Assembly: GCA_041661545.1 (NCBI GenBank)
Contig: JBAZUH010000001.1
Coordinates: 544,148-608,147, forward strand
Reading direction: 5' to 3'
Source: Candidatus Staskawiczbacteria bacterium
GTDB lineage: Bacteria; Patescibacteriota; Minisyncoccia; Minisyncoccales; Staskawiczbacteraceae
DNA length: 64,000 nucleotides
The number at the start of each line of letters is the position of its first letter. Within the stretch, counting starts at the first letter, position 1. Below are positions 8,532 to 32,128 of the stretch, in pieces. The translations under genes were made by a program, and so were the position numbers. The notes beneath the pieces were generated by a model. That model was given only the letters and a program-made list of their open reading frames with translations, made no database searches and was not told the DNA's origin.

Positions 8532-8607
8532 GCCCTCGTGGTGAAATCGGATATCACACTTGGCTTCGAACCAAGAATTCCGGGTTCGAGTCCTGGCGAG
8601 GGCACCA
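8532..8607 (+). tRNA. tRNA-Arg (anticodon TCG), CCA encoded
   Basis: GCCCTCG/CGAGGGC acceptor stem, anticodon stem CTTGG/CCAAG with loop CTTCGAA, T-arm CCGGGTTCGAGTCCTGG, 3' ACCA. Confidence 0.9.
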
Positions 8608-8615
8608 CAACAAAC

Positions 8616-8987
8616 ATGAATAAAAAAATACTTTTGTCGGTTATTATATTATCATTAGCCTTGACTCCATTATTAGCCATGGCAGTGGACGAGGGGCTAG
8701 TAAAATGTGGAAATGACGTTAATAATCCATGCGACTTAGATGATTTTATGACAATACTAGATGATATTTACACATTTATAGTTTACACAATAGCCGCTCC
8801 TCTAGCTGTTATTGCTATTATAATTGGTGGCGTATTAATGATGACTTCTGCAGGCAACCCCAATATGATGAGCCTAGGTAAAAAAGTTTTTTGGTCTGCT
8901 ATTATAGGACTAGTTTTAGCTTTTGGGGCAAAAGCCATTATTAATTTTGTTCTTGAAGTTGTCGGGTATAATAAGGAACCAATATAG
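8616..8987 (+). CDS. Free-standing T4SS-type (VirB2/TrbC-like) pilin-module protein
   Basis: MNKKILLSVIILSLALTPLLAMA signal peptide, then two TM helices separated by a short Gly/Lys loop (..IIIGGVLMMTSAGNPNMMSLGKKVFWSAIIGLVLAF..). The start was moved from 8538 because that extension overlaps tRNA-Arg. Confidence 0.6.
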   Translation: MNKKILLSVIILSLALTPLLAMAVDEGLVKCGNDVNNPCDLDDFMTILDDIYTFIVYTIAAPLAVIAIIIGGVLMMTSAGNPNMMSLGKKVFWSAIIGLVLAFGAKAIINFVLEVVGYNKEPI

Positions 8988-9008: not shown

Positions 9009-9084
9009 GCCCCCGTAGCTCAATTGGTAGAGCAGTTCCCTCTTAAGGAATTGGTTCCGAGTTCGAGTCTCGGCAGGGGCACCA
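9009..9084 (+). tRNA. tRNA-Lys (anticodon CTT), CCA encoded
   Basis: GCCCCCGTAGCTCAATTGGTAGAGCAGTTCCCTCTTAAGGAATTGGTTCCGAGTTCGAGTCTCGGCAGGGGCACCA with anticodon loop CTCTTAA. One acceptor-stem mismatch. Confidence 0.88.
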
Positions 9085-14808: not shown

Positions 14809-15957
14809 CTATTTATAATTAATTGTTGACCCTCTACTATATCCTGCCAAAGGATTTCTTACCCCCACAACTTGAAAGTGAACGTGACATCCCGTTGATC
14901 TACCAGCACCGGCCATACCCGGCTTGCCACCCATCAAACCAATATTTTGTCCTGTATAAACTTTTTCACCTGGCGAAACTAACACAGTCATTAAGTGTCC
15001 GTAATAGGTAACTGCTCCATTGCTATGTAAAATTGTAACATGGTTTCCCATACCAGAATTATATTTACCATTACCCACAGCTCTTTGAACAACTCCAGCG
15101 GCTGCAGCATAAATTGGAGTTCCACATTTATTGGCAACATCAACAGCATTAAAGTAGTGAAGTCCTTGAGTAATTCGTCCCTGTGTTGGAAAAATAAAGA
15201 AATTATTTGCTACAGGAATTCTAGTATTATTATTCTTTATTGGAGCTGCTTTCTTAGGCATTACTCCTTCTGGCACCACTAAAATATCTCCTATATAAAC
15301 ATCGTTTTGATTAGCCAAGTCATTATAGGCAATTATGTTTTCTGATTTAGATTTATATTGCGAAGCAATAGCTGAAATAGTATCTCCAGATTTTACAACG
15401 TGCAACACTCCATCTGTTGGCAAAATTACTAAACTATCTCCAACTTTAATTTTTGAAGAAGATGTTAAATCGTTTGCCCAGAGTAGGGTATCAAGAGATA
15501 TTTTATGGGCTTGGGCAATAGATTTAAATGTATCACCTGTTTGAACTTCGTAATCAATTATGTCTTTACTCTCTTGATAATTACCTCCAAAAACATCTCC
15601 TAAAACTTTGCCCGAAACAATGCACGGCGTTGATACAGCACAAACTGTATTGTCTTGTATTATTTTTAAATCAGGAGTTTCTAGGGCAATCATATCTGAT
15701 TGGCTAGAGAATAAACTATCTACAATTGCACCATTTGGGTTGTCAAAAGAATTTAAAAATATGCTACGGCTGTGGCCTAAATTGTCTGAAGCTTCGCAAG
15801 ACATATAAATACCAATAAATATAAAAATAGCTATTAAACCGAAAAAAAACAAAGGATTCTTTGATGATCCTCTAAAACCAGCCCCTTTCTTTGAGTTCTT
15901 TGTGGAGGGCCAAACCTTCTTTATCCCTATTAATAATTTGTTAATTATTTTTAACAA
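14809..15957 (-). CDS. LysM-domain M23 family metallopeptidase
   Basis: 382 aa. N-terminal TM, two LysM repeats (YEVQTGDTFKSIAQ.., HVVKSGDTISAIAS..) and M23 motifs HLMT, GCHVHFQV. Confidence 0.9.
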   Translation of the reverse strand: MLKIINKLLIGIKKVWPSTKNSKKGAGFRGSSKNPLFFFGLIAIFIFIGIYMSCEASDNLGHSRSIFLNSFDNPNGAIVDSLFSSQSDMIALETPDLKIIQDNTVCAVSTPCIVSGKVLGDVFGGNYQESKDIIDYEVQTGDTFKSIAQAHKISLDTLLWANDLTSSSKIKVGDSLVILPTDGVLHVVKSGDTISAIASQYKSKSENIIAYNDLANQNDVYIGDILVVPEGVMPKKAAPIKNNNTRIPVANNFFIFPTQGRITQGLHYFNAVDVANKCGTPIYAAAAGVVQRAVGNGKYNSGMGNHVTILHSNGAVTYYGHLMTVLVSPGEKVYTGQNIGLMGGKPGMAGAGRSTGCHVHFQVVGVRNPLAGYSRGSTINYK

Positions 15958-16093
15958 CTTGTTTCTAGCTTAGCATTTTCAAACAAGCTAGTCAAATAGT
16001 TATGCACAATTATTTGTCTGCTATTTTAAGAAAAAATATGTAAAAAAAGAGCGCCATATTTGTGAGATAGACGCATAACAGCAAGAAAGGATT

Positions 16094-17518
16094 TCACGGA
16101 ATGTCCGTAGATTTGGCTATCGCTTGGGCGGGGTTTTGAGCCTTCCATGCGCCCGAATCAGTAGAGCTGTAGACATATCCGCCCATGACCGTCGCAGTCA
16201 TACTGCGAAAGTCTACGGATGCGGACACGTCAGACCAATTCTGCTTGTCGGCAACCGGCTCCCAATCCACCCCGAAATTGCCAGAGGTGTAAAGCGAGCC
16301 TCCAGACTCTGCAGCCAAGAATCGACGACCATCGCCCGAACACTTAATGGCCACCCATTTCCGAACATTGTCGGTTAACCGTGGTTGCCACGTCTGCATA
16401 AAGTCAGTGGAGATGTAGATATATCCACCATTTACAGTGGCGCCCCAAAACTGGGCGTTATAATTGGTTGTTAGGTCCGTCCAATCGCGGGACTCGCCAA
16501 CGGGCTTCCATGTCTGGCCCCCGTTGTAGGACGCATAAAGCCAACTATTGGAGGCTGCTACCCCCCGAAATTGACCACCAAAATCCATCTCGCCAGCCAC
16601 CCAATTCGGGCCAGCAAACCCGGTCGTCTCCCAGCTATCCCCCCAATCATACGTCTGCCAGATGTATCCACCTGGATCAACGGCCATCAGAAGTTGGCCA
16701 TCATCAGAAGTTGCTACGGACCTCCACCGGATTTTCAGGTCGCCCTCATAGGGCAAGTCGTATGCTTTCCAGGTCTGACCATAGTCAGCGGACCCATATA
16801 ACTCTCCATCAAGGGTCCCTATAATCTGGTTTTGGCCATAATAGGACACGGCGACGCAGGAAGGTTTATCTATATCTACGGTCCGCCAAGTGCTCCCGCC
16901 ATCGGCGGAGACATAAACTGGCGCGTTGCCAGCGATAAGCGTCCTATATTTTCCGTCACCAGACATGGAAGCACCGTTCCATGCAAGACTGGGACTGCCC
17001 ACGGCAGGTGAGGGGGGATTGGGTGTGTTACCACCATCGCCACCACCACCATTGCCACCGCCAGGACCTCTGCTCCCATCTCCTCCACCAATGGGGCCGA
17101 AAGAATAAAATGGAACAGATTCCTTGGTCTTATGCCTGATTATGGGGCTCCAATTAGCATAAGCCGTTGGTGTCGTCGCAGGATTAGATGTTGTTGTGCG
17201 CGAACCAAAGTTGGTTCGTGCAATGCTCGCCTGCGGGGCAACAACCTCTGCTCGAGGAATATTCGTGCCAGCTCTCTTTAAACTGACTTGGCCTTCGTTG
17301 TGTCCACTGGATTTCAAATTCCAGGGCTTGTATTTGTTCGCGGTCAAGCCTTGACCCGACCTAAACAATTTCAACGACGGCCTTTCGGGCTCGCTGAGCC
17401 ACACTACAAAAAAGATCGGCACTAGCAGTGCCAGTAGAGTAGCGCCCAGTTTCTTGAGCCCTATCTTCTGCAAAACCGCCGTCGCGGTAGAAATCTTCTC
17501 AAGGCTTTTTGTGTTCAT
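16094..17518 (-). CDS. Membrane-anchored Asp-box (BNR) repeat beta-propeller protein, on a GC-rich island
   Basis: Seven SxDxGxTW-like boxes (SADGGSTW, SADYGQTW, TYDWGDSW, SYNGGQTW, STDFMQTW, TSGNFGVDW, STDSGAW). Gly/Pro linker and TM anchor. ATG at 17518 is preferred over the GTG at 17581 because AAGGAG sits 10 nt upstream. Confidence 0.7.
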   Translation of the reverse strand: MNTKSLEKISTATAVLQKIGLKKLGATLLALLVPIFFVVWLSEPERPSLKLFRSGQGLTANKYKPWNLKSSGHNEGQVSLKRAGTNIPRAEVVAPQASIARTNFGSRTTTSNPATTPTAYANWSPIIRHKTKESVPFYSFGPIGGGDGSRGPGGGNGGGGDGGNTPNPPSPAVGSPSLAWNGASMSGDGKYRTLIAGNAPVYVSADGGSTWRTVDIDKPSCVAVSYYGQNQIIGTLDGELYGSADYGQTWKAYDLPYEGDLKIRWRSVATSDDGQLLMAVDPGGYIWQTYDWGDSWETTGFAGPNWVAGEMDFGGQFRGVAASNSWLYASYNGGQTWKPVGESRDWTDLTTNYNAQFWGATVNGGYIYISTDFMQTWQPRLTDNVRKWVAIKCSGDGRRFLAAESGGSLYTSGNFGVDWEPVADKQNWSDVSASVDFRSMTATVMGGYVYSSTDSGAWKAQNPAQAIAKSTDIP

Positions 17519-17604
17519 GGCTGACTTTCTCCTTTCCAAAAAGTTTTCAATGCTAGAAGTGGTTGACAAAATGTCTTCCACGTTGCTTCTAGCGTGCTAC
17601 TTCA

Positions 17605-18539: not shown

Positions 18540-20525
18540 ATGTTTCAACAATTCTCATTTCTAAAAAATAAATATTTATTTTTCACTCTTTTCTGTTTTA
18601 TTATATTACTAGGAGCATTAATGCCCGTACACGTCTTAGCCGAATCAAATGACAGTGCTGGCTGGGGTAATACAGGAGATAGATCAAAAATAATAAATCT
18701 ATTTACTTCTGCATCTCCTGATTCTTTCTCTCCCGAAGGTGGTTGGGATGCAACAACGTGGCCCAAATATTTAATTGGATATTTATTATTTTCAATCGTA
18801 TGGCTAGCCTTCAAAATAGCTGCTTTAGCACAGTTGTTATTATCTTATGTATTGGGTGTAATTGTAAGCTTATCAATAACCAAAGATCCTAATTGGCTTC
18901 CAATATGGGGCAGCCTTAGAGATTTAGGAAATATGGTTATTGTATTGGGATTCGTAGTAGTAGGCATTGCTACATCTCTAAGATTTAAAGACTATGAAGC
19001 TAAAAAGATCTTGTTGCCTTTGATACTAGTTGCTATTCTAATCAACTTCTCCGGATTAGTTTGTGGATTAATTATAGATGCGTCTAATTTAGTAACTACT
19101 GGATTAATAGAGGGAAGTGAAGCTTCCATGATGCCATATAACGTCTTACAACAAATGATTCTCGTTAGCTCGTGCGTGCATACCACAGGACACGATGCGG
19201 GGCCCGATGCATATGTTGAAGTATCAACGTCAGTAAACACCCCCTCGTGTATTTCAACCGAAAATTATGATAAAGATCTTAAAATATTTATAGCAATATG
19301 TTGTTTATGGATGATTTTGTACTTAGCCATAGGTCTTACATTTTTATATATGGCAGTTTTACTTTTGGCAAGATATGCCATTTTAATAATGTTATTTATA
19401 TTATCTCCTTTAGCTTTCACTTTCTGGGTTTTTCCAATTACTAAAAAATTGTGGCAAGAGTGGTGGAATCATTTTGTAAAATGGTGTTTTGTTGGAGTCT
19501 ATGCATCGTTTACTCTCTACATAGCTACTACCATTATAACAAAAGTGCCCATCGTGGGAGGCACTGCAGACAACCTGAATAGTGACTTATGGCAACTAAC
19601 TCTTGTATATTCTATTGCAATAGTATTTTTGATTGTTGGATTTAAAATGACCGTCAGCAAGGTTGGAGGAGCCGCTGTAACAGCTATTTTGGGACTAGCA
19701 ACTGGTGGCGCGGCTTTGGCCGGTAGAGCAACCCTTGGTGCAACCAAACTTGCTGGAAGAGGAATCGGAGCCGGAGCCAGAGCATTAGATAATAAAGCTA
19801 CTGGCGGAAAGGTTACTTCGGCGATAGGCAACATGGGTAGGAAGGTTGGTAGCAGTACCGGAAGATTTCTGGATGCTATGGCAGGAACTCCTGGTGCTAG
19901 AGCTGGAGGTGTAGCGAAAGAATTCTCAGCAGGCTCTGATAGAATTGGAGATATGGATTTAGCCAGCCAAGTTAAATTAGCTTCAGGCAAAGGAATGGGT
20001 GGCATGGCAAGAACAAAAGAAAGAGCTGAGGCAGTACAAGCCTTGGCAAAAAGCGGAAATCTTTGGAGAATTAGCGATGATATAAATGAACAATCAAGAG
20101 CCGTTAATTTTGCAGATAAATATATGCAAAGCAAAGGGATAGATGCCACTAAATTTAGAGGGGACGTTAGCAAGAATGCTCCTGTGCTAGAAGCATACAA
20201 TCGTCCTATTGTAGAAAAAATTCAACAACAGCATCCAAATTGGAGCCCTGCTCCCGACGCAAGCTTGGGTGGATTAACTCGAGCTCAACATGAAGCGGTT
20301 GTACGTGCAGTAGCGAGAATGCCAGAAGACGGTTTAAATGCCAGCACGGCAAAATCAATGCATCATTCTGCTATAACAGCAGCGGGAGCTAGAATGAACG
20401 ATAGAAAAAAACAAACATGGCAAAAAGCTTCTTATAATGATATGCGCCAAGAGGCGCTGGCTATGAATGCTGGGCCAGAACAAACCGCCTTGGCAGAAAG
20501 AGCAAGAGCAATGTTTGATTTATAA
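18540..20525 (+). CDS. Polytopic membrane protein, TrbL/VirB6-like by architecture
   Basis: 661 aa. Signal peptide (..VHVLAES), at least 6 TM helices, Gly/Ala-rich segment, hydrophilic C-terminal third. No motif-level proof. Confidence 0.5.
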   Translation: MFQQFSFLKNKYLFFTLFCFIILLGALMPVHVLAESNDSAGWGNTGDRSKIINLFTSASPDSFSPEGGWDATTWPKYLIGYLLFSIVWLAFKIAALAQLLLSYVLGVIVSLSITKDPNWLPIWGSLRDLGNMVIVLGFVVVGIATSLRFKDYEAKKILLPLILVAILINFSGLVCGLIIDASNLVTTGLIEGSEASMMPYNVLQQMILVSSCVHTTGHDAGPDAYVEVSTSVNTPSCISTENYDKDLKIFIAICCLWMILYLAIGLTFLYMAVLLLARYAILIMLFILSPLAFTFWVFPITKKLWQEWWNHFVKWCFVGVYASFTLYIATTIITKVPIVGGTADNLNSDLWQLTLVYSIAIVFLIVGFKMTVSKVGGAAVTAILGLATGGAALAGRATLGATKLAGRGIGAGARALDNKATGGKVTSAIGNMGRKVGSSTGRFLDAMAGTPGARAGGVAKEFSAGSDRIGDMDLASQVKLASGKGMGGMARTKERAEAVQALAKSGNLWRISDDINEQSRAVNFADKYMQSKGIDATKFRGDVSKNAPVLEAYNRPIVEKIQQQHPNWSPAPDASLGGLTRAQHEAVVRAVARMPEDGLNASTAKSMHHSAITAAGARMNDRKKQTWQKASYNDMRQEALAMNAGPEQTALAERARAMFDL

Positions 20526-20543
20526 ATATTAATTAATAATATA

Positions 20544-21167
20544 ATGGTAAATAATCAACAAAAAATTATTATTTTTGAGAATCAAGGCTCTAAAAGCATA
20601 TGGGCGATTATTTCAGAAGTTTTAAAAGATAATGGGATGGAAGAAACAGCCATTGATTTTTTCAAAAAAGTGGACGAGAAGAAAATACCATTTTCAAGCA
20701 TAATATATAAATTATCTAGAAAACTTGCTCAAGAAGAAATTACAGAAGAAAATTTTGTTACATCAATCAAAGACCAATTAAAAATTGAGCAACAAGTTGC
20801 TGAAAAAATATTAAAAGATGTAAAAGAAAAAATTTTACCGCTGGCTAGAACGCTTGAAAAAGATGAACTAGTAAAAGATGAAACAATTAGCACTGTGCCA
20901 CAGAGCCTAAAAACAATAAATAAAAATTTCTCACCGGCAACAGAAAAAAATAACATAAATATTTCTGGCTCAGAAATTTTGGCTAATGAGCCAATAGATT
21001 CTTTGCCAAAAAATGAAACTCAAAATATTGCAAACACAATTACTCCTGCGACCATTGAAACACCAACAAAAAGAATTAGAAAACCTTTACCTAAAAAACC
21101 TTTTGTACCAGAAACTCAACCAACACAACCTAGCAAGCCAGATTCTTATAGAGAACCTATAGAGTAA
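20544..21167 (+). CDS. Hypothetical protein with Pro/Thr-rich C-terminus
   Basis: 207 aa, follows the VirB6-like gene on the same strand. Confidence 0.45.
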   Translation: MVNNQQKIIIFENQGSKSIWAIISEVLKDNGMEETAIDFFKKVDEKKIPFSSIIYKLSRKLAQEEITEENFVTSIKDQLKIEQQVAEKILKDVKEKILPLARTLEKDELVKDETISTVPQSLKTINKNFSPATEKNNINISGSEILANEPIDSLPKNETQNIANTITPATIETPTKRIRKPLPKKPFVPETQPTQPSKPDSYREPIE

Positions 21168-21180
21168 AAGCAGTAAACAA

Positions 21181-21209
21181 CCCCACACCAATTTCGGGTG
21201 GGGTTTTTT
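21181..21209 (+). terminator. Terminator after 20544-21167
   Basis: CCCCACACC-AATTTC-GGGTGGGG followed by TTTTTT. Confidence 0.7.
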
Positions 21210-21213
21210 ATTT

Positions 21214-21270
21214 AAAAAAAGGGGCGAGCTTCGTGGTGTCGTGTAAAAAACGACACCATCGAAGCCCGCC
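21214..21270 (-). terminator. Long-stem terminator of the GC-rich SPFH-like gene
   Basis: GGCGAGCTTCGTGGTGTCGT / ACGACACCATCGAAGCCCGCC form an imperfect stem of about 20 bp. The T-run is on the minus strand. Confidence 0.6.
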
Positions 21271-21289
21271 TTTGGGTTATGTTCTGAGG

Positions 21290-22468
21290 TTACAGGCCGT
21301 CCAAATCGTCCGGCCCCAACTCTATCGCTGGCGGAGGCGAACCTCCACCAGGCTGATTGCGTCTGTCACCACGACGATTCCCCCCGTCTCCCCGAGCCAA
21401 TGGCTGAAGAGCATTGCCGAGTTCGCGTGCCAACGTAACACCGGCTGCGAAGTTGGCCTCAATCGGTTGGCCACCGCTGGTGACATCAAACTTGGTGAAT
21501 CCGCGACCAGCGAGCGCCTGCGATCGTAGTTGCTCAAGCGCCTGTTTATGTTGAGCATATTCACCACTTCTTTTCAGCTTGGCAACGAGTTTCTTCATCG
21601 CCACCGAATCCGACGAGTCAACTCCCGCGAGCCTTGCTTCTTCGGTAATCCATTCTTGCATGGCAAGCTGGACCGGGCCAAAAACCCGCGCCTTTTCGCC
21701 TTCAGCCAACAATTGCTGTTTGCTTTTGGCCTCCAAGGCTTCCTGATATCCGGGCTGGTATCCCACATCTTCAACGATGACAGAATTTTCCAGAATCCGA
21801 AGACCCCAGTCATTTTCCATCGTCGTGAAAACAGGAAGCGATCCCTGATTAACCAGGTCTTGCCAAAGCTGGGCGCCATTACCCCTGGCGGCTTGAGCAC
21901 GCTCTTGTGAACCGCCACGAACCCATGCTCGCAACGTTGAATCCATCCGCCGTATAACCTGAGCGCTAACGTCGCGGGGTGCCACAAACAGCCATTTGTA
22001 CAGGTTGACGATTCTCATGACGGAAACGAATTTCACGTCAAGTGGAACGCTCTCAGGAGCTGCCGTTTCTGCTTTAGAGATCATGGGTTCAGGAGCGACG
22101 TTTCCGACGCGGACATGAATGCCCGCACCAAACATGTCGGCACTTCCATTCTGCTGAGCGTATCGAACGGCCGAGACAAACGGCCATAGATAAATCACCC
22201 AGCCCCCAAAACGGCACATAAACCATGACCCCTGGCCATAGCCGTCGGGGTAATCTCCCTCGACAACGTTGCCGTTTTCATCGAAGCCATGCCCCCTGAA
22301 ATTCATCCCTAGGTAGCAGAAGCTACCGAAGCTGAGAAAGGCAATGGCTGTGCCTTCTCGGATGATTGCCACCCTAATAATACGCAACGCCCAGAGGAGG
22401 AAGATTGTGAAAATCATCCACCAAAGGTGATCGCTCAGCCAATCGAACACTGAATATATCGCTTGCAT
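21290..22468 (-). CDS. Membrane-anchored SPFH/band-7-like protein, on a GC-rich island
   Basis: Start taken at MQAIYSVFDW (ATG at 22468). N-terminal TM. The segment IIREGTAIAF...VKFVSVMRIVNLYKWLFVAP.DV resembles an SPFH fold pattern. Coiled-coil and Gly/Arg-rich tail. Confidence 0.45.
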   Translation of the reverse strand: MQAIYSVFDWLSDHLWWMIFTIFLLWALRIIRVAIIREGTAIAFLSFGSFCYLGMNFRGHGFDENGNVVEGDYPDGYGQGSWFMCRFGGWVIYLWPFVSAVRYAQQNGSADMFGAGIHVRVGNVAPEPMISKAETAAPESVPLDVKFVSVMRIVNLYKWLFVAPRDVSAQVIRRMDSTLRAWVRGGSQERAQAARGNGAQLWQDLVNQGSLPVFTTMENDWGLRILENSVIVEDVGYQPGYQEALEAKSKQQLLAEGEKARVFGPVQLAMQEWITEEARLAGVDSSDSVAMKKLVAKLKRSGEYAQHKQALEQLRSQALAGRGFTKFDVTSGGQPIEANFAAGVTLARELGNALQPLARGDGGNRRGDRRNQPGGGSPPPAIELGPDDLDGL

Positions 22469-22609
22469 TTTGGTTGTTGGTTGTTGGTTGTGGTTGGTTG
22501 GTTTTGAACAGTCACTTAACGGTTGGCGCGAGAACACCTCGCTCCACACAGGAATTACCCTGCGTTCATAATGAAAACCGTGTTTGACAATGTTCTTTCA
22601 GATACATTT

Positions 22610-22818: not shown

Positions 22819-23226
22819 ATGGAACAATATCCTATACCACAATTTATTGAAGCAGAAAGTAAAATTGCTTTTTTCATATCTTTTAAACAATTTTTCTACT
22901 TAGTAGGGGCGGGGCTTATTTGTTTTTTTCTATATTACATTTTGCCTCGTGCAATTTTTTATGTAGTCGCGTCTATAATTTTTATTGCTGCGGCAATATT
23001 AGCCTTTGCCACCATAAATGGAACTCCTATAATAAACATCATTTTAAATTCAATTGGTTTTTCTATGGGTGGCAAAAACTATACATGGAAGAAAAAAGAA
23101 TCTCCCTATCCATTTAAACCAATTTCAAGAACTAAAATTAAAAAAATAGATGTGGGGCCAGTGTTACAAGCACAAACAAGCCAGCTAAAAAAAACTAAAA
23201 CATTAATAGACTTAAAGACTAAATAA
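22819..23226 (+). CDS. PrgI/VirB3-like small membrane protein
   Basis: 135 aa. YPIPQFIEAESKIAFFISFKQFFYL followed by two TM helices, positioned directly upstream of VirB4. Confidence 0.6.
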   Translation: MEQYPIPQFIEAESKIAFFISFKQFFYLVGAGLICFFLYYILPRAIFYVVASIIFIAAAILAFATINGTPIINIILNSIGFSMGGKNYTWKKKESPYPFKPISRTKIKKIDVGPVLQAQTSQLKKTKTLIDLKTK

Positions 23227-23248: not shown

Positions 23249-23908
23249 ATGGCAGAATCTGCAACACAAGCATTTTTAGAAGTGCAAGATATAAGAGAAG
23301 GAGTTTTGCTTTTAAAAAATAATTCTATTAGAGGAATTTTAATGACTTCTTCTATAAACTTTGCTTTAAAGTCTGAAGAAGAACAAACTGCTACAATATA
23401 TGCCTTTCAAAGTTTTTTAAATTCATTAGACTTTTTTTGCCAAATTGTTATTCAATCAAGAAATATAAACATTACTCCATATTTAGATAGTTTAAAAGAT
23501 TTAGAAAATAAACAAACAAACGAATTATTAAAAAAACAAACTATCTCATACAGAGAGTTTATAAAAGAAATGGTGGTGGGGGATGTAGTTATGACAAAAA
23601 GTTTTTATATAGTTATACCATATAATCTTATGGAAATTTTTGGGTTAAAGGGTGCCCAAAAAAAATTCAACTTTGGAGATGCCTCGGGCGGAGCAAACAA
23701 CAAACCAATGGGTGATGATGATTTTGAAAGATGCAAAACACAACTTTGGCAAAGAATGGAATATGTATCTATGGGGCTAAGAAGATGTGGCCTAGAAGCT
23801 GTTCCATTAACTACGCCAGAACTCATAGAATTATTTTGGTCTATACACCATCCCGATCAAGCAGAGGTGGGGTATTATCCAGAAATATTACCCGAATTAT
23901 TAAAATAA
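23249..23908 (+). CDS. Probable detached N-terminal domain of VirB4 (ICE/Firmicutes type)
   Basis: 219 aa. FLEVQDIREGVLLLKNNSIRGILMTSSINFALKSEEEQTATIYAFQSFLNSLDFFCQIVIQS resembles the N-terminus of Orf16-type VirB4 ATPases (from memory). Confidence 0.4.
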   Translation: MAESATQAFLEVQDIREGVLLLKNNSIRGILMTSSINFALKSEEEQTATIYAFQSFLNSLDFFCQIVIQSRNINITPYLDSLKDLENKQTNELLKKQTISYREFIKEMVVGDVVMTKSFYIVIPYNLMEIFGLKGAQKKFNFGDASGGANNKPMGDDDFERCKTQLWQRMEYVSMGLRRCGLEAVPLTTPELIELFWSIHHPDQAEVGYYPEILPELLK

Positions 23909-23926: not shown

Positions 23927-25732
23927 ATGGATTTTTTTAATAATATTTTTGGAAAAAAAGAGGAAGACTTAACAGAACAAATTTTTAAAGAAGAAGCTTT
24001 TGATGTAAAAGATATTATAGCTCCTCCATATATTGGGGTTCTTCAAGACCATATAAAACTAGGCGAAAGACTTGCTAAATCTTTTTTCGTTTTTTCTTAT
24101 CCTAGATATTTAAATACTGGTTGGTTTTCTCCTGTTATAGATTTAAATACTCCAATGGATATTTCATTTTTTATACATCCTGTTAGTAGTGAATTAATTT
24201 TAAAAAAATTAAGAAAAAAAGTTACAGAGGTTTCTTCAGAACTTTTAGAAAGAGAAGAAAAAGGTTTAATTAGAGACCCTTCTCTAGAAACAGCCTATAA
24301 AGATATTGAAGCGCTACGCGACAATTTAATGACTGCTCAAGAAAAAATGTTTAGGCTTGGTCTTTATATAACAATTTACGAAACCTCTGAAAAAGAATTA
24401 CGAGAAACCGAGCTTACATTAAGATCAATTTTTGAATCTAGATTAATTTATATAAAACCTGCTTTGTTCAAGCAAAAAGAAGGTTTTATTTCTTGCAATC
24501 CTTATGGAATGGATTTATTAGATGTTCACACCCCCATGGACACAGCTCCCTTATCAACTTGTTTTCCATTTATTTGTTTTGACTTAAGCTCTAACGAAGG
24601 AATTTTATATGGCATAAACAGACATAATAATTCTTTAGTTTTATTTGATAGATTTAGTTTAGAAAATGCCAACATGGTAGTGTTTGCAAAATCTGGTTCT
24701 GGAAAATCTTTTGCTATTAAATTAGAAATTTTAAGATATTTAATGCAAGGCATAGACTGCATAATTGTTGACCCAGAAAATGAATATGAGTTTTTAGCCG
24801 ATGCAGTTGGGGGAGCATTTTTAAAAATTTCTTTAACATCTGCAAACCATGTAAATCCTTTTGACTTGCCCGTGCCAGGGCCAGATGACAACCCACAAGA
24901 TATTTTAAGATCTAACGTTATAAACTTGGTGGGACTTTTAAGAATTATGTTAGGAGGCTTAACCCCAGAAGAAGATAGTATTTTAGACGAAGCTCTAACA
25001 GAAACTTATGCAATAAGAGATATAACTGCCGAATCAGATCCAACAACATGGGCTAACAACACTCCATTAATGTCAGACTTTCAAGAAGTTTTACAAAGTA
25101 TGACTGGAACAGAGTCTTTAGTAAAACGTATTGGAAAATTTACCAAAGGAACTTTTTCTGATTTCTTTAACCAACAATCTAATATTACTATGGATAAAAG
25201 TTTGGTTGTTTTTGGAATTAGAGATATGGAAGAGTCGCTAAGACCTATAGCCTTATATATTATTATGAGATATATTTGGAATACTGTAAGACAAAAATTA
25301 AAAAAAAGAATTTTAGTTATTGATGAGGCATGGTGGTTAATGCAGTCAGCTGATGGAGCATCTTTTCTTTTTGGGATAGTAAAAAGAGGAAGAAAATATT
25401 GGCTAGGCGTAACTACAATTACGCAAGATGTGGCCGACTTTATGAAATCAGATTATGGCAAAGCAATTGTTACCAACTCGTCTTTGCAACTTTTAATGAA
25501 GCAATCAACAGCTGACATTGATTCTGTTCAAAAAGTTTTTCAATTAACAGAACAAGAAAAATATTTATTACTAGAAGCCGCGGTGGGCGAGGGGTTGTTT
25601 TTTGCAGGCAAAAAACATGTATTTTTATCTGTAGTTGCAAGTCAAACAGAAAGTCAAATAATTACTACCAACCCTCAAGAAGTTTTAGCAAACAGACAAG
25701 CCAAAAAAGATTTAGAGTCAGCACAAAATTAA
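23927..25732 (+). CDS. VirB4/TrbE/CagE-family T4SS ATPase (C-terminal two thirds)
   Basis: 601 aa with Walker A FAKSGSGKSF, Walker B RILVIDEAWWLM and TTITQD. Confidence 0.85.
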   Translation: MDFFNNIFGKKEEDLTEQIFKEEAFDVKDIIAPPYIGVLQDHIKLGERLAKSFFVFSYPRYLNTGWFSPVIDLNTPMDISFFIHPVSSELILKKLRKKVTEVSSELLEREEKGLIRDPSLETAYKDIEALRDNLMTAQEKMFRLGLYITIYETSEKELRETELTLRSIFESRLIYIKPALFKQKEGFISCNPYGMDLLDVHTPMDTAPLSTCFPFICFDLSSNEGILYGINRHNNSLVLFDRFSLENANMVVFAKSGSGKSFAIKLEILRYLMQGIDCIIVDPENEYEFLADAVGGAFLKISLTSANHVNPFDLPVPGPDDNPQDILRSNVINLVGLLRIMLGGLTPEEDSILDEALTETYAIRDITAESDPTTWANNTPLMSDFQEVLQSMTGTESLVKRIGKFTKGTFSDFFNQQSNITMDKSLVVFGIRDMEESLRPIALYIIMRYIWNTVRQKLKKRILVIDEAWWLMQSADGASFLFGIVKRGRKYWLGVTTITQDVADFMKSDYGKAIVTNSSLQLLMKQSTADIDSVQKVFQLTEQEKYLLLEAAVGEGLFFAGKKHVFLSVVASQTESQIITTNPQEVLANRQAKKDLESAQN

Positions 25733-25759: not shown

Positions 25760-28700
25760 GTGAAATTTTTTTATAAAAAACTTTTTTTCTTTTTTTGTAT
25801 TGCGCTTATTTTCTTGTTTGGTGCAAATTTTGTTTTAGGCTTAGAAGCAAATTATCCAGAATTTTTTGGAAAATCTTTAGATGATGACTCTTCAATAGGC
25901 GACTTTGTTTGTTATTTTTTTAACGCTGGTCTATCTATTGCCATAACTTTATGTGCAATTATAATAGCTTTTGGGGGAATTTATTATTTAGTTTCTTATG
26001 GCCGAGGAAAGTTTACCAGCGAGGCCAAAGACTGGATTAAAGCAGGCATTTTGGGGCTTTTAATAATTGTCTGTTCATCTTTGGTTATATATACAATTAA
26101 TCCCAATATAAGTTCTTGTAAAATTGGGATTTTAGAAGCCTTAAAATCAGTTGTATCTTTGGGCCAGGATTATAACTCATCTGAAGATACCTTAGTGCTC
26201 ACATATGACGAAATCCCAATAGGAGTATTAACTGAAAATCTTTTGACTCGAGCAGGATTTTGCTCTACTTTTGATAGATTTGGAGACCCGCTTCCAGAAA
26301 GTTTGGCGCAATCAACTGGTGGTGGTGTTCAAGCTGATACCAGTGAAGTAATTACTAATGACAGAGTAGATTGTTTAAGAAGACAATGGGAGAGTGCTAT
26401 AAAAAAAACTCAAGTTGTGGCATCTTTGTCCGATGAAATAGTTAAGTTAATGAATACTTGTGATTGCAGTATTAAAGATGCTAACGGTAAAAATAAATGT
26501 GAGCCAGTTTGCAACCCTCTAACTGGGTGCCAAACAACAGGGTCCTGCCCCAACGGTTCTTGCACCGGAAATTGCATAAATGGATTATGCCAACAAGCTA
26601 ATAATTCAACTGACTGTTGCCCCACAGGAGTAAAAGAAAAAATTGAGCACGGCCCAATTTTTGTACCAGCCAGCATTTTTCATAGTACAGCAGAAAACTC
26701 TAATGCTGGGAGCACCGGAACAGGGAGCGACGAAGCTAGCACTTGTTTTTTCACTTGTAATGTAGACAAAGACTGCGGGAATCAAGAAGTTTGCGACCCT
26801 GCAACTCATCAATGTGGAAAAATTTATAAAGGATTAGATGAATTTAGATGTGATGAAGAAAACAAAAGCCCTCACGGTCGCGATCCAACGTTACCAAATG
26901 AGGGAAAAGACCAATGCCATACTATAAGAGATTTAGTTTCCGATGGAACATTCCATGCGGGAACAAGGGGTGGATATGATTTAAGCGAAAAAAAGTGGAA
27001 GCATTTAACTCTACTACAGCAAATGACTTGGTTTGAAGAAAATATTGATTTTTGGGGAAATGATATTTTTGGCATACAACACGATATAATTAATTTAAAA
27101 CAAGCGAAAAATAAATTAAACTCTTGCTATAATCCTGTAAGTGCCATGGATATTGTAGCAAAATATCAAGTTTCAGAACAGAAAAAAACTGTTGTTCTCA
27201 AAGAGCCTACAAGAATTAAAGATTGGCAAAGTAATAAATTAATAGATTCTGGGCAATATTGCAAAGGTTTTAATTATAATAATTCTTCTTGTTTAGAGGT
27301 TTGCAATAATTCTTGTCCAGAAAGCGACAAAAATGCACTAGCAGCCCTGGCTCAATGTGCCGAAAATAGTAATTCTTCAAACTCAGAAAATGGCTCTTCA
27401 AGCGACGATGAAAGTGAAGATGAAAAGAATGAGCTACAAGAATGCGTTAAAAATGCAATGACCTCAAGGTCGTGTCCATATGGAGATGGTTATGGTAATT
27501 TTGAAGACTGCATAAGCTCTTGCCGAGACTCATGTCACGCATCTTGCGTTGCTCAGTTCTCGCCATGCACAGCGGAATTTGGTTTTTGTGCAAGTCAGTG
27601 CGCTAATAACGGACAATGTGTTTTAGATAATTTGGACAAATGTGTGCTTGACAAACGAGCCTCTCAAAATGCTGCTGATTGCGCTGAAGGCGTAACAGGT
27701 GATAGCAATATAAAATATTGCGTTGATAATTCTTTTTTATGCAAGGATGGCTCTCAGCAATATTCAGGTTATTATGATTGTATAAAGCCAGATAAACTAT
27801 CCAAATGCTCGGATGAAGAAAATAATGATTGGGAAGCGTGCCAAGTTTTAGGAGGTACTGGCGGAGGGTGCGTATGGAATGTAGCCAGGTGTGACGGAAC
27901 CCCTTGCGCTTATTTTAGCAAATTACAATGCGGAACAACCGAATTATCAACTTCGTGCGAATGGGATGATGAGGATGATGTTTGCTCGGGTAAATCTTGT
28001 CCTTCAGCAAATGCTCCAGAAGAATGCAATGCTATCCCTCAATGCGAATGGTTTGAGAATAAATGTAAAGAAAAGCCATGCACTTCTTTTTTAACAAAAG
28101 GGGTCTGTAATAGTCTTTCTCCTAGATGTTCATGGATAAAAGAGAGTTGCACTCAAGATTATTCAGCTTCATATTTATATGAAAACAAAGATATACAAAA
28201 ATGTCTTGCCACTGATGACTCTAACTCTAATGCTAAATGCCAAGAAACATATCCAGAAACTTCAAAATGCCCAACAGCTTCCAACTGCCCATATTGCCCT
28301 TGTAACCAATTAGATGAAACATTTAAATTTACTATTCCTAATGGAAGCACAGCTGTTAGCTTAGTTTTTTGCACAGATGATAATGATTGTTTTGAAGATC
28401 AAGTATGTGAGAAGAGCTTTCTCTCAACTTCTGTAGATAATTCAAATACTTCTGTCTGTAAAAAGAAAGAAAACAAAATACTTTGCGACAAAAAAGCTGA
28501 TTGTCACCCAGATCAAACCTGCGTAGAAACATGCTATTGCCCAGATAGCAAAATAGATAAAAAAAATCCTGATGTATGTTTAGTAGAGCGTGTTTGTAAC
28601 AAAATCTGTATGCATACTGGGAAAAATGACAAATCTTGTAACGAAGATGCCGATTGTTCTGATGAAGAAGCAGTTTGTAGCCCACGCGGGTTTTGTATTA

Positions 28701-29725
28701 GCAATGCTGGCCAAGAGGGTTATTCTGTTGCACAGCCTCAAATTGTTGGATATCAAATGGTGGGCCCTCAATGTACTGAATATGCTTATAATGGCGACCC
28801 TTTAACATTTTATTGTCAAAAAGAATTTTGGAATGATCCTCAAAAAGAGCAAGGTAAACCTCCAACGCCCATAGGAAGTGAAAAAAATGTAGATTATAGT
28901 TTAAAATCAGAGATACCAGTAGGTCAAACAGTTGACGATGCTTTGGCTTGGGCTAATAAATTAGTTACTACAAGTACTTATTTGCATAGAGATGTCCAAA
29001 GAATTGTAGAAGATATGAGAATAATGGGTAAGGCTCAGAATAATAAAATTCTAGATAAAAAAAATGAGGAAATTGATAATCCTGCTAAAGATTACTGCAA
29101 ATGTAATGCTAAATTAATAAATGGAGATCCTATTTGTACAGGAAACTGCAAGTATGCTGAAACTTTAATGCCAACATATGATGATCAGGGCACTTATTTG
29201 GGAGAAGAGTGGCAATGTAGCTGTAACTCAGAACCATGCAAGGGAAATCCTTGCCAACAAATGATAAATTATCATTCTCATCTTTGGAATGATTTTAAAA
29301 ATTTTAAAAGAGAATACATAAATTATGATACTTGGATAATTTCTGAACCCAGAAGTGATATTTTAAAAGAATTAACTTATTCTAGACAACAAATAGATAG
29401 TTGTAATGTAAAATCAACTGATTATGGATTATCCAAAGCTAGATTACTGAGTTGCTCAAAAGCCGAAAGAGAACTAGTGCCACCAATAAATACTACCGAA
29501 TATTTAAAAAAACAAGAATTATCTAACATTTTACACATTCCTTTAGAAACCGAAAGGCTTGAAAAACTTATAGATGAAAAAATAGAAGGAGTGTGTTATG
29601 GTCAAAAACTAGGGTTAATAACTGGTGTTGATATAATGGATAATTGGTTTTGTGTAACCCAGTGGGCTGATGACCGCGTTCCTAATAATAATCCAATATA
29701 TAATATAGAAAATAATAATTTTTAA
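25760..29725 (+). CDS. Giant Cys-rich surface protein with an N-terminal pilin-like membrane module
   Basis: 1321 aa with a GTG start. Signal peptide, TM, GG, Lys loop, TM ending YTINPNI. The ectodomain has about 98 Cys by hand count and repeated CxxDxDCxxxxxC and CxWxxxxC motifs. Confidence 0.6.
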   Translation: MKFFYKKLFFFFCIALIFLFGANFVLGLEANYPEFFGKSLDDDSSIGDFVCYFFNAGLSIAITLCAIIIAFGGIYYLVSYGRGKFTSEAKDWIKAGILGLLIIVCSSLVIYTINPNISSCKIGILEALKSVVSLGQDYNSSEDTLVLTYDEIPIGVLTENLLTRAGFCSTFDRFGDPLPESLAQSTGGGVQADTSEVITNDRVDCLRRQWESAIKKTQVVASLSDEIVKLMNTCDCSIKDANGKNKCEPVCNPLTGCQTTGSCPNGSCTGNCINGLCQQANNSTDCCPTGVKEKIEHGPIFVPASIFHSTAENSNAGSTGTGSDEASTCFFTCNVDKDCGNQEVCDPATHQCGKIYKGLDEFRCDEENKSPHGRDPTLPNEGKDQCHTIRDLVSDGTFHAGTRGGYDLSEKKWKHLTLLQQMTWFEENIDFWGNDIFGIQHDIINLKQAKNKLNSCYNPVSAMDIVAKYQVSEQKKTVVLKEPTRIKDWQSNKLIDSGQYCKGFNYNNSSCLEVCNNSCPESDKNALAALAQCAENSNSSNSENGSSSDDESEDEKNELQECVKNAMTSRSCPYGDGYGNFEDCISSCRDSCHASCVAQFSPCTAEFGFCASQCANNGQCVLDNLDKCVLDKRASQNAADCAEGVTGDSNIKYCVDNSFLCKDGSQQYSGYYDCIKPDKLSKCSDEENNDWEACQVLGGTGGGCVWNVARCDGTPCAYFSKLQCGTTELSTSCEWDDEDDVCSGKSCPSANAPEECNAIPQCEWFENKCKEKPCTSFLTKGVCNSLSPRCSWIKESCTQDYSASYLYENKDIQKCLATDDSNSNAKCQETYPETSKCPTASNCPYCPCNQLDETFKFTIPNGSTAVSLVFCTDDNDCFEDQVCEKSFLSTSVDNSNTSVCKKKENKILCDKKADCHPDQTCVETCYCPDSKIDKKNPDVCLVERVCNKICMHTGKNDKSCNEDADCSDEEAVCSPRGFCISNAGQEGYSVAQPQIVGYQMVGPQCTEYAYNGDPLTFYCQKEFWNDPQKEQGKPPTPIGSEKNVDYSLKSEIPVGQTVDDALAWANKLVTTSTYLHRDVQRIVEDMRIMGKAQNNKILDKKNEEIDNPAKDYCKCNAKLINGDPICTGNCKYAETLMPTYDDQGTYLGEEWQCSCNSEPCKGNPCQQMINYHSHLWNDFKNFKREYINYDTWIISEPRSDILKELTYSRQQIDSCNVKSTDYGLSKARLLSCSKAERELVPPINTTEYLKKQELSNILHIPLETERLEKLIDEKIEGVCYGQKLGLITGVDIMDNWFCVTQWADDRVPNNNPIYNIENNNF

Positions 29726-29736
29726 TATTTTATAAT

Positions 29737-30759
29737 ATGTTAAAATTTTTACAAAAAAATAAAGCGTGTCTAATATTATTCTCTACTCTTTTTTTAGGAT
29801 TTGCTAATTTAGCTTCAGCCCTAGAAGTCACCAATGGCCCCTGCTCTAATTCTGATAATTTAGGACAATGCGTAGTAAATATTTTTGATTGGGGAATTGG
29901 CATAGCTGCCATAATAGCCTCGGTGTCATTTGCTATTGGGGCTGTAACATTTATGTTATCTGGAGATAGTGGGGAGAGGTCCTCAAGCGGTAAAGACCGA
30001 ATGAAAGGAGCAGTTTTAGGATTAGTACTGCTGGGCGCTTCTTTCCTTATTATGAAAACAATAAATCCTATCTTAGTTAATCCTGACATTGACTCATTAG
30101 ATGAGGTAGAGCTAGAAACCCCTCCGCGCACCCCAGGTATATATTTTTATCCCGATGCATCTTGCGACAAAACATCTTTATATTATAGCAATACTAGTTT
30201 GGAAAACATTGGTGCCGAAGTTAATGGCATTGAAATTGTAAATGACCTAGGATATAAATATGGCGTTGTGCTACACAAGACTCCGGGACTTGGCGAGGGT
30301 GGAGATTGTCTTGAACCTATATTAGATGAGGGGTGTCACTCAACTGATAATTTTTATGGGGCTATTGATATCTTTTCAATAAATCCAAAACCTATCACGT
30401 CTGGTACTGGTGTAGAGTTTTATAGTGAAGCGCATGGATTGGATAAAGGCTCAAGGGGTGGCCACTATTTAATAAAAGCTGAAGATATGACGGGCGACGA
30501 GGGCACCCCTGGATTAAAAGACTTTGAATGGGATGGATCCATAAATGATATACAAAAACAAGAGTGCCCTGATTTTAAGACTTGTCCAGGATCTATGGAC
30601 GTGAAGGGGAGCTTCTTTGTTGCTGTATATTCTGATTCCAAAGAAGGTGGTCTATATTGTCAAACTTTTACCGATAAAGTTGCGGAGTTTAATGCCGAAC
30701 CAGTAGTACACGATGGCGACTCAGAAATAACTAAAGTTACTATTTTCCCTACTAATTAA
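29737..30759 (+). CDS. Pilin-module fusion protein (paralog A)
   Basis: 340 aa. Same N-terminal module ending KTINPILV, then PGIYFYPDASC.. in a Cys-containing domain. Confidence 0.55.
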   Translation: MLKFLQKNKACLILFSTLFLGFANLASALEVTNGPCSNSDNLGQCVVNIFDWGIGIAAIIASVSFAIGAVTFMLSGDSGERSSSGKDRMKGAVLGLVLLGASFLIMKTINPILVNPDIDSLDEVELETPPRTPGIYFYPDASCDKTSLYYSNTSLENIGAEVNGIEIVNDLGYKYGVVLHKTPGLGEGGDCLEPILDEGCHSTDNFYGAIDIFSINPKPITSGTGVEFYSEAHGLDKGSRGGHYLIKAEDMTGDEGTPGLKDFEWDGSINDIQKQECPDFKTCPGSMDVKGSFFVAVYSDSKEGGLYCQTFTDKVAEFNAEPVVHDGDSEITKVTIFPTN

Positions 30760-30786
30760 TTTTTGTGATATTTCTAATATATATAT

Positions 30787-32085
30787 ATGGAAAATTATAA
30801 AAAGAAACTATACAGATTAATTTTATTAATTATCTTTTTATTAGTTGGTTCTTTTTATTTCCCTATAAATAAAGTTTTTGCTCAATTAGAAGTTAAATAT
30901 CCTGCCCTCCCCACAATAACTGGGGGGACTACTGAACCAGTAAGCGATTTACCAAGCTATGTAAAATATCTGTTTGTGGGAGGAGTATCTATAGGATTTT
31001 TAATTGCTTTGATATCTTTAGTAGTAGCGGGTGTATTATATTTTATATCTCCCATAAATGTTAGCGCAAAAAAAGAAGCTAAAGATAGGATAATGGGTTC
31101 TATTTTAGGGATACTTATCCTTTTATTGTCATATTTAATTATAACAACTATCAACCCACAACTTAATATTTTTACCATAAATAAATTAGAATCTGTTAAA
31201 ACAGAATCGCCCAAAATTAAAAAAGAGCCAGGAGTTTATTTTTATAAAGAAAGCGGAGAAAGTAGGTGTGAGGGGAATACACCCGCTCACACAACAAATA
31301 TTGGAAATTTTGGCGATTTAAAAAATCAAATTAATTCTGTAGATATTGTAAGAGACCCCACATCTGATGTTGCTTATATAGCTATTTTATATGAACATCC
31401 TAATTTTTGGGGAAATTGCCATTATATCAACCCAGATGGGGGATGTGAGTGGCAAAGGCCTTTATATTCATCTGCCTCTATACATAGATATGATTTTAAA
31501 CCAGAGGGCGACGGAATATATTTTTTTCGCAAACCATGCTTCAACACCCAAGAGTACAAAAAAAATAACAACACTGATGACCCCGCAGTCGCGCCCACAT
31601 ATGATTATGACAAACCACTTGATGGAAAAGAATATACTGATATAGAAAAGGTAATTGAATATTGTAAAGAAAATAGTGGTGGTTGGTATCAAATTGAAAA
31701 CTCTGAGGTTACAGGTAAAATTTATACAACCACATTAGATGACTTAAAATTTAAAGATGTTCCAGAAGGGGAAGAAGATTGCATCAAATATGATAAATAT
31801 AACAGATGTACATCTACACAAGCACCATCACTTGGCGGGAAAAATATTTCTTCTATGATAATTGCTGGCGATTATTCAGTAGTTTTTTATAATAAAAAAG
31901 ACCCAAATGAAGGTGGTCGGGATATAGGCAATATTGGATCGGCTGATTGGAGTGCTTGCCAAGAGTTTCCTTCTTCTTATGATATTGATAAATCTGGCAC
32001 ACGACAAATAAAATGGGAAATTGTTATGAATCACAACGGACTCATACTTCCTGATTCTGTGGCTGTTATTCCTATACGTCCATAA
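30787..32085 (+). CDS. Pilin-module fusion protein (paralog B)
   Basis: 432 aa. Same N-terminal module ending TTINPQLN, then PGVYFYKESGESRC.., homologous to paralog A. Confidence 0.55.
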   Translation: MENYKKKLYRLILLIIFLLVGSFYFPINKVFAQLEVKYPALPTITGGTTEPVSDLPSYVKYLFVGGVSIGFLIALISLVVAGVLYFISPINVSAKKEAKDRIMGSILGILILLLSYLIITTINPQLNIFTINKLESVKTESPKIKKEPGVYFYKESGESRCEGNTPAHTTNIGNFGDLKNQINSVDIVRDPTSDVAYIAILYEHPNFWGNCHYINPDGGCEWQRPLYSSASIHRYDFKPEGDGIYFFRKPCFNTQEYKKNNNTDDPAVAPTYDYDKPLDGKEYTDIEKVIEYCKENSGGWYQIENSEVTGKIYTTTLDDLKFKDVPEGEEDCIKYDKYNRCTSTQAPSLGGKNISSMIIAGDYSVVFYNKKDPNEGGRDIGNIGSADWSACQEFPSSYDIDKSGTRQIKWEIVMNHNGLILPDSVAVIPIRP

Positions 32086-32100
32086 TTTATCCTTATAAGC

Positions 32101-32128
32101 AAAAAGCCCCGCTATAGCGGGGCTTTTT
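32101..32128. terminator. Bidirectional terminator (T4SS-like operon / jag)
   Basis: AAAAAGCCCCGC-TATA-GCGGGGCTTTTT. Confidence 0.85.

Follow-up and report, generated by a model that had tools for sequence, protein, structure and literature searches.

The locus described here raises the question of what is encoded by two adjacent genes that close a type IV secretion system (T4SS) operon, one of which, gene A (29737-30759, plus strand; 340 aa), bears the NCBI name 'pilin' and the other, gene B (30787-32085, plus strand; 432 aa), the name 'hypothetical protein'. Both lie in a stretch of 64,000 nucleotides, referred to below as the window, from a Candidatus Staskawiczbacteria bacterium (GenBank assembly GCA_041661545.1, contig JBAZUH010000001.1, positions 544,148 to 608,147), and all coordinates given are those of the window. 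Both proteins are identical in sequence to Candidatus Staskawiczbacteria proteins encoded on a contig of 737,971 bp. A and B were found to be paralogous proteins, in which a VirB2/TrbC-type T4SS pilin module forms an N-terminal anchor and is followed by a head of two tandem β/γ-crystallin-type domains; this assignment of the head is firm for the first domain (D1) and moderate for the second (D2). The pilin array opens with the gene for a giant protein (25760-29725, plus strand; 1321 aa) that has the same anchor and an unrelated head of about 1200 residues, and it closes, here as in related loci, with B. Neither A nor B is preceded by a recognisable Shine-Dalgarno sequence, and both start codons were assigned from the aligned N-termini of homologues.

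An initial annotation of the sequence had proposed that the 340-aa and 432-aa proteins share an N-terminal module and homologous ectodomains, that these ectodomains are distinct from that of the giant protein, and that one anchor is combined with different heads. The two open reading frames (ORFs) and all of the strings quoted for them (KTINPILV, TTINPQLN, PGIYFY, PGVYFY, YGVVLHKTPG, YIAILYEHPN, GDC and GNC) were found, and each of the proposals was borne out. BLASTP aligned A with B at E=7e-14 and 28% identity over 228 residues, from the anchor to about halfway into the head. In shuffle tests of the anchors, z was 23 for A versus B and 21-24 for A and B each versus the giant. The heads alone, cut five residues before PG[IV]YFY, gave a Smith-Waterman score of 82, as compared with 35.9 ± 5.3 for shuffled sequences (z=8.65); in this comparison, set beforehand as the one to refute head homology, 0 of 1000 shuffles reached 82. 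Chance or compositional similarity of the heads is ruled out by the shuffle test together with BLASTP with composition adjustment. Comparison of the heads of A and B with that of the giant gave z values of -0.97 and 0.51, i.e. no similarity, and the giant as a whole was matched neither by any Pfam family nor by the hidden Markov model (HMM) of the A/B head.

In a multiple alignment of the heads of A, one close A relative and 24-63 B-type homologues, A could be aligned with the B family along its whole head. The invariant head positions are G134/G149 (in PG-V-Y-F-Y), six Cys residues, a C-Q-x-F motif and a C-terminal Pro. At least 48 homologues of B, of about 370-500 aa, were found. A word-indexed homologue search with the head of A returned a single relative, and the other A-type proteins considered below came from synteny and HMM scans of fetched loci.

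Each anchor includes three hydrophobic segments, with a conserved K-D-R loop between the last two. The first segment belongs to a predicted Sec signal peptide, which in A would comprise aa 1-28 (29737-29820, plus strand; ...LASA/LEV; hydrophobic aa 10-31) and in B aa 1-32 (30787-30882, plus strand; ...KVFA/QLEV, followed by the pattern A-x-LEVxYP; hydrophobic aa 7-32). In 56-62 of the 65 homologues, Ala and then LEV are found at the same position of the alignment, and the conserved Ala with L-E-V-x-Y-P after the first helix fits a predicted signal peptidase I site. The VirB2-like pilin module then extends over aa 29-113 of A (29821-30075, plus strand) and aa 33-126 of B (30883-31164, plus strand), and in both proteins consists of two hydrophobic helices joined by a basic loop, GKDR in A and AKDR in B. 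Models built with AlphaFold 2 (AF2) place helices at aa 2-30, 42-74 and 79-109 in A and at aa 2-30, 55-86 and 92-122 in B, whose hydropathy profile has hydrophobic stretches at aa 57-94 and 100-126. In B numbering, the loop residues K99, D100 and R101 are conserved in 57, 62 and 64 of the 65 homologues, respectively. The second helix ends with the exit motif T-I-N-P-x-L (invariant TINP in A and INP-x-L in B), in which N123, P124 and L126 are present in 65/65. A flexible linker follows at aa 114-132 of A (30076-30132, plus strand), where no secondary structure is predicted, the predicted local distance difference test score (pLDDT) is 62-67 and the alignment is poorly conserved, and at aa 127-147 of B (31165-31227, plus strand), with a pLDDT of 58-67 and no regular structure after aa 127.

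The anchor of A matches the Pfam family T4SS_pilin (PF18895) over aa 42-106 at 8e-7, with 29.5 bits against a cut-off of 26.6 bits. An N-module HMM, built from the N-terminal parts of the 65 homologues, matched A, B and the giant at E=1e-25 to 1e-46 (B 8e-46, giant 2e-25), as well as one further ORF in the window. A class III signal (G|F/M-x-x-x-E) is not present in the N-termini MLKFLQKNKACLILF... of A and MENYKKKLYRLILL... of B, and no type IV pilus families were found in the Pfam search of the two proteins. Given the lack of a class III signal and the Pfam match to T4SS_pilin, the anchor of A and B is a VirB2-type T4SS pilin module. Hence, the 'pilin module' of the initial annotation holds in the sense of a VirB2/TrbC-type T4SS pilin and fails in the sense of a pilin of type IV pili, which is ruled out by the same two observations and by the Sec-type signal with two hydrophobic helices. 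A search of the PDB sequences with the full-length profile revealed no solved VirB2 relative of the anchor.

The heads, of about 210 residues in A and about 290 in B, contain strings of the ILYEHPNFWG type that resembled β/γ-crystallin Greek keys, and a relationship to crystallins was therefore tested in four ways. In A, D1 comprises aa 133-220 (30133-30396, plus strand; D1 HMM 1.3e-22), with seven β strands and a pLDDT of about 90, and the more divergent crystallin-type D2 comprises aa 223-340 (30403-30756, plus strand; D2 HMM E=6e-16). The corresponding domains of B are D1 at aa 148-240 (31228-31506, plus strand; D1 HMM 1.3e-37; pLDDT 90-96), which includes the Greek-key signature YEHPNFWG, and a crystallin-like D2 at aa 241-432 (31507-32082, plus strand; D2 HMM 1.8e-62), which includes a GENISS-type motif and a variable insertion at about aa 254-296. 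The insertion has a low pLDDT and is carried by only part of the family. The whole head of B was matched by the head HMM at 5.5e-106.

Comparison of the head profile with PDB sequences gave as the best match 3hzb (Flavollin, a crystallin domain of Flavobacterium johnsoniae) at E=0.0055 over D1 of B; a circularly permuted βB2 crystallin was matched at E=1. When family members were searched individually against Pfam, Crystall (PF00030) was found in 5/25 (best 1.9e-4) and Crystall_3 in 2/25; A and B themselves did not match Crystall at E≤0.1. Among 1.84e9 representative proteins the head profile had 395 matches at E≤1e-3, of which 212 were at or below 1e-10 and 89 at or below 1e-30, and in nearly all of the matches the head starts at residue 125-245, i.e. 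behind an anchor. The only clearly non-pilin architecture among the best 150 of the 395 is that of P0206, a metagenomic protein of 1125 aa matched at 3.5e-14, which combines an M23 peptidase with six Pfam Crystall repeats (PF00030, 1.1e-34). Its repeats have the canonical Ca-binding motif and it has no pilin anchor. As judged by sequence comparison, P0206 is the bridge from the heads of A and B to classical crystallins.

The structure prediction that the initial annotation had suggested for the pair supported the crystallin-type heads, a fold that had gone unnoticed there. The AF2 models, calculated from 65-sequence alignments, had a mean pLDDT of 81.2 for A and 82.0 for B, with about 90-97 in the head cores. 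In a Foldseek search of the PDB, the four best matches of A were two-domain crystallins, including γS 9z75, βB2 1bd7 and γS 1zwm; γS 9z75 was aligned over 215 columns at E=1.8e-4 and a probability of 1.00. With 215-225 columns, the alignments with two-domain crystallins approximate the full head in length; the next matches were Flavollin, Nitrollin and IPSE. For B, the two best matches were the single crystallin domains 5z6e and 4aka, with probabilities of 0.85-0.91.

Hallmarks of β/γ-crystallins are the signature Y/F-x-x-x-x-Y/F-x-G in each Greek key, a conserved Ser and the Ca-binding motif N/D-N/D-x-x-S/T-S (PMC3551895). The family of A and B retains Y-x4-F/L-x-G in full in the second key of D1, where Y202 is found in 62/65, F or L207 in 63/65 and G209 in 64/65. 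The first key of D2 reads F-RKPC-F-N, with the aromatic spacing kept and the Gly lost, and the signature is degenerate in the other two keys. Conserved Ser residues are present in the three keys examined (S184 in 47/65, S231 in 63/65, S355 in 63/65 and S356 in 65/65). Alignment of D1 with D2 by hhalign gave E=8.8e-4 at a probability of 23%, a weak match in the expected register.

To compare loci, the contigs of three B homologues and 15 species-representative loci from GTDB, 10 of which are labelled Candidatus Staskawiczbacteria, were used. The 15 GTDB loci were found with an alignment of B-type proteins only, and all ORFs of both sets were scanned with the anchor and head HMMs. The order in every locus that includes the whole region is VirB4, giant, one or two A-type proteins, one B-type protein and a convergent jag gene, the array being adjacent to jag-yidC-rnpA-dnaA. 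The related giants (850-1320 aa) always open the array, have the anchor and have no crystallin head. A-type proteins (340-523 aa) matched the B-dominated head profile at E=1e-5 to 1e-43, or at E=1e-5 to 1e-28 when A itself and its 81%-identical orthologue were left out, and B-type proteins (349-449 aa) matched it at E=1e-56 to 1e-113. The ectodomain family, a search for which had been suggested in other bins of the candidate phyla radiation (CPR), is represented in Candidatus Staskawiczbacteria by both A-type and B-type orthologues. Copy number, for which variation between genomes had also been suggested, does vary, and only in the A-type slot, where loci L004/L005 and L012 have two copies.

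The occurrence of separate A-type and B-type orthologue lineages in a fixed order in related loci indicates that A and B are ancient paralogues. Hence, of the locally duplicated family proposed initially, the paralogy stands, and a recent local duplication is ruled out. Identity to the proteins of the window is 22-40% for A-type heads (closest relative excluded), 36-50% for B heads and 28-54% for anchors, so that the A-type heads have diverged most. Relative to the closest locus, L001, the ratio of non-synonymous to synonymous substitution rates (dN/dS) was 0.04 for VirB4, 0.12 for A and 0.15 for both B and the giant, rough values, as dS was about 0.9-1.1 and near saturation. All four genes are under purifying selection, with the array evolving at about three to four times the rate of the ATPase.

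Several A-type proteins are longer than A (472 aa in L002/L010, 494 and 449 aa in L012, and those of L013-L015, L017 and L020), as an additional segment of about 90 residues separates the anchor from D1. This segment was matched by neither the D1 nor the D2 HMM and may be a third, more diverged domain. Two metagenomic A-type relatives, P0160 and P0170, carry Cys-rich repeat inserts in D2 (weak DUF7107) that are like the Cys-rich repeats of the giant. The head domains seem to exchange or acquire modules, and the heads appear mosaic, given these inserts or the extra domain of about 90 residues in distant A-type relatives.

The window also encodes a TrbC/VirB2 pilin without a head (8616-8987, plus strand; 123 aa), which matches Pfam TrbC (PF04956) at 5.1e-10 and PF18895 at 1.1e-9, both above the cut-offs. 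It was matched by the N-module HMM, and by phmmer to A-type anchors at 1e-4 to 1e-8. The gene is located between those for tRNA-Arg (8532-8607) and tRNA-Lys (9009-9084), about 17 kb upstream of the pilin array and about 15 kb from virB4. As listed, the ORF begins at a GTG inside a tRNA gene, and the likely start is instead the ATG at 8616. The protein includes a CGNDVNNPC loop that resembles the A-type N-terminus, has only a weak version of the exit motif (AIINF) and extends about 10 residues beyond the second helix. It is a candidate for the major pilin.

Immediately upstream of the array is the gene for a VirB4/TraC-type T4SS ATPase (23927-25732, plus strand; Pfam P-loop_TraG 3.4e-28 and AAA_10 1.5e-13). 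It is preceded by the genes for PrgI, a VirB3-like T4SS membrane protein (22819-23226, plus strand; Pfam PrgI 1.7e-7, above the cut-off), and for a protein of 219 aa (23249-23908, plus strand) that has no Pfam match and whose counterparts in L002 and L004 carry PF26593, TraC-like. The gaps between the genes for VirB4, the giant, A and B are 27, 11 and 27 bp, respectively, and from PrgI through VirB4 to the array they lie in the range 11-27 bp. The head of the giant is Cys-rich, and the whole protein has 98 Cys residues (7.4%). A strong hairpin terminator at 32101-32128, with a 12-bp stem that includes seven G-C pairs and with T/A runs on both sides, separates the end of B from the convergent jag gene (R3H) and marks the end of the operon. 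Beyond it are jag, yidC and rnpA, and then dnaA and dnaN.

Further genes were noted near the T4SS locus. A protein of 661 aa with long hydrophobic stretches, a Gly/Ala-rich tail and no Pfam match is encoded upstream of PrgI-VirB4 (18540-20525, plus strand), and L004 has a counterpart of 624 aa at the same place; it is a possible VirB6/PrgH analogue. A protein with LysM and M23 peptidase domains (14809-15957, minus strand) may be the wall-opening enzyme of the T4SS; a survey of Patescibacteria reported VirB1 homologues and stand-ins with LysM and M23 domains (PMC12102498). Two islands with a GC content of about 49-54%, as compared with about 32% in the contig, are found at 16000-17500 and 21000-22500. 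The first coincides with a minus-strand ORF for a Sortilin/BNR-like protein (16094-17581; 495 aa), and the second with a minus-strand ORF between genes of the T4SS locus (21290-22549; 419 aa, no Pfam match), a position that is empty in L004. The GC contrast, the single ORF per island and the lack of a gene at the second position in L004 suggest that the islands are recent foreign insertions or an assembly chimera.

Taken together, these data moderately favour the interpretation that A and B are paralogous T4SS surface proteins, either minor or tip pilins or T4SS-linked adhesins, with host-binding heads. Following export via Sec and cleavage of the signal peptide, the anchor would form a helical hairpin in the membrane with its basic loop in the cytoplasm and the C-terminal head outside, a topology that is consistent with the positive-inside rule and with the conserved Cys residues. 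The VirB2-like module would then dock into the T4SS, or be extracted by it, like ordinary pilins, and the heads would be presented either on the T4SS channel itself or on a short pilus, at its tip or at its base. Any such filament would be composed for the most part of the 123-aa short pilin. The crystallin-type heads could act as stable binding modules for the host-cell surface, with the fast-evolving head of A tuning a variable specificity and the conserved head of B providing a constant one. Functionally, such proteins would resemble two-domain tip adhesins, built here on a VirB2 scaffold.

The adhesin interpretation fits the literature on Southlakia, the one genetically tractable Patescibacterium (PMC10633639), whose epibiotic growth strictly requires both the pilins and the T4SS (PMC10633639, PMC12857230). 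It is likewise in keeping with a report in which a T4SS pilus of Patescibacteria is no more than hypothesised (PMC12857230) and with a phylum-wide survey in which 'no adhesins such as PrgB were detected' (PMC12102498). On a wider and distinctly tentative view, Staskawiczbacteria, and probably other CPR bacteria of the Paceibacteria type, may build a T4SS pilus or channel cap from a short pilin and a fixed set of three or four pilin-adhesin fusions, in which a giant Cys-rich head, a fast-evolving A-type head and a conserved B-type head would be the determinants of host recognition, the VirB2 module being a general export and display handle.

Several points weigh against these assignments. PF18895 falls below the cut-off for B (1.1e-3, 19.5 bits) and for the N-terminal 140 aa of the giant (0.019, 15.5 bits), and the cleavage site and membrane topology are inferred from motifs. 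In the head, the Foldseek E values for B are weak (0.16-0.30), the full signature is present in only one of the four Greek keys, and the canonical Ca-binding motif N/D-N/D-x-x-S/T-S occurs in none, the corresponding sequences being KNxVNS, FASSAS and GENISS. Given this degenerate motif, Ca binding by the heads of the A/B family cannot be assumed, and, with only a single full signature, the biochemistry of studied crystallins may not transfer to them. Moreover, neither the present data nor the literature consulted shows a pilus for the Patescibacteria T4SS or polymerisation of the fusion proteins, and a head of 200-1200 residues on a VirB2 module is without a characterised precedent.

The hairpin might instead be a mere tether that holds the heads on the cytoplasmic membrane for envelope stabilisation, a coat like a wall or surface layer, or a Ca-dependent matrix, with no handling by the T4SS and with operon linkage reflecting co-expression only. 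Protein S is a surface crystallin of this kind, with Ca-dependent matrix assembly. In microbes, β/γ-crystallin domains typically serve as stable structural modules in proteins that are secreted or exposed at the surface (PMC3551895). Steric constraints would make a helical filament of the VirB2 type difficult to assemble if every subunit carried a head, and, as noted, a Patescibacteria T4SS pilus is described as no more than a possibility (PMC12857230). However, the same anchor is found on three unrelated or divergent heads, directly after virB4 in related loci with the full array; it is homologous to the bona fide TrbC/VirB2 pilin of the same genome, and its highly conserved KDR loop and invariant TINP-x-L exceed the needs of a plain membrane tether. 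A simple tether is considered unlikely.

A further alternative is that T-I-N-P-x-L is a processing site, at which A and B would be split into a short pilin and a soluble double-crystallin effector or toxin acting on the host envelope, after the model of the small disulfide-rich killer toxins with a crystallin fold, WmKT and SKLP. C-terminal processing of TrbC/VirB2 pilins is known in the RP4 and Ti systems. The invariant N123, P124 and L126 are located exactly at the module boundary, a disordered linker comes next, and the heads carry conserved cysteines. Yet the operon was not found to encode a protease or cyclase that could act as a partner, killer toxins were not among the 50 best Foldseek matches of either model, T-I-N-P-x-L could equally be a helix cap or membrane exit, and the short pilin has only the weak AIINF. 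A pro-protein is considered quite improbable. Finally, the word 'pilin' and the hydrophobic N-termini might suggest pilins of type IV pili, and the AT-rich contig can inflate weak similarities. Both ideas are refuted by the evidence given above on the class III signal, T4SS_pilin and the shuffles, and by the fact that A-type and B-type orthologues match one and the same head profile at 1e-9 to 1e-113; virtually no weight is left to them.

The heads of A, B and the giant are concrete candidates for host recognition by the essential T4SS of Patescibacteria, and if the VirB2 module does serve as a display handle, tip adhesins would be made here in a novel manner. The finding adds a partner domain to those known for the VirB2 pilin family and for the bacterial β/γ-crystallin superfamily. 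Public annotation misses these genes, as B is a 'hypothetical protein' and both B and the giant are below the Pfam cut-off for any family. In the open-access literature, no report was found that links crystallins with Patescibacteria or T4SS pilins, or Staskawiczbacteria with a pilin.

The anchors of A, B and the giant are similar to VirB2/TrbC/TraA pilins (PF04956, PF18895) in their signal sequence, two hydrophobic helices, short basic loop and adjacency to virB4/virB3. In contrast to the known pilins, which are small, the three proteins continue into heads of about 210 (A), 290 (B) and 1200 (giant) residues. The T4SS of Patescibacteria is like the mating-pair formation class MPF-FATA, usually without a relaxase and often located by dnaA, dnaN, rnpA and ksgA, and divergent VirB2-like genes with a mean identity of 25% are widespread near virB4, in arrays of 2-11 members (PMC12102498). 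The array in the window resembles those of Southlakia epibionticum ML1 and Nanosynbacter TM7x (PMC10633639, PMC12102498) in having three tandem divergent VirB2-like genes after virB4 (28% identity between A and B) and in its setting, an MPF-FATA-like T4SS locus that has no relaxase and lies near dnaA, dnaN and rnpA. However, the published arrays, including those in earlier descriptions (10.1101/258137), concern small proteins, and the heads, their folds and the fixed order giant/A/B are not described there. A structure-clustering preprint lists many freshwater-specific structural clusters with PF18895, the heads of which are likewise undescribed.

With β/γ-crystallins (Flavollin 3HZB, Nitrollin 3ENT, Protein S, vibrillin and those of the lens), the heads share the tandem double Greek-key fold, the signature in one key, the conserved Ser and links at the profile level, and microbial β/γ-crystallins also occur in secreted and surface proteins. 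They differ in that three of four keys are degenerate, the Ca-binding motif is lacking, D2 carries insertions, six Cys are invariant and the domains are fused to a pilin. By analogy only, the combination of a module for incorporation into a fibre with a receptor-binding head recalls FimH/PapG of chaperone-usher systems and VirB5 at the tip of the T-pilus, which are likewise few specialised subunits encoded beside the machinery. Neither is related to A and B in sequence or fold, and the module of A and B is a membrane-helical hairpin, not an Ig-like domain or a helical bundle. The VirB2-like arrays of Patescibacteria, their divergence and their proximity to dnaA have already been published; what appears to be new, as judged from the open-access literature, is a conserved set of three to four genes for VirB2-module fusions, two of which carry double crystallin-type heads.

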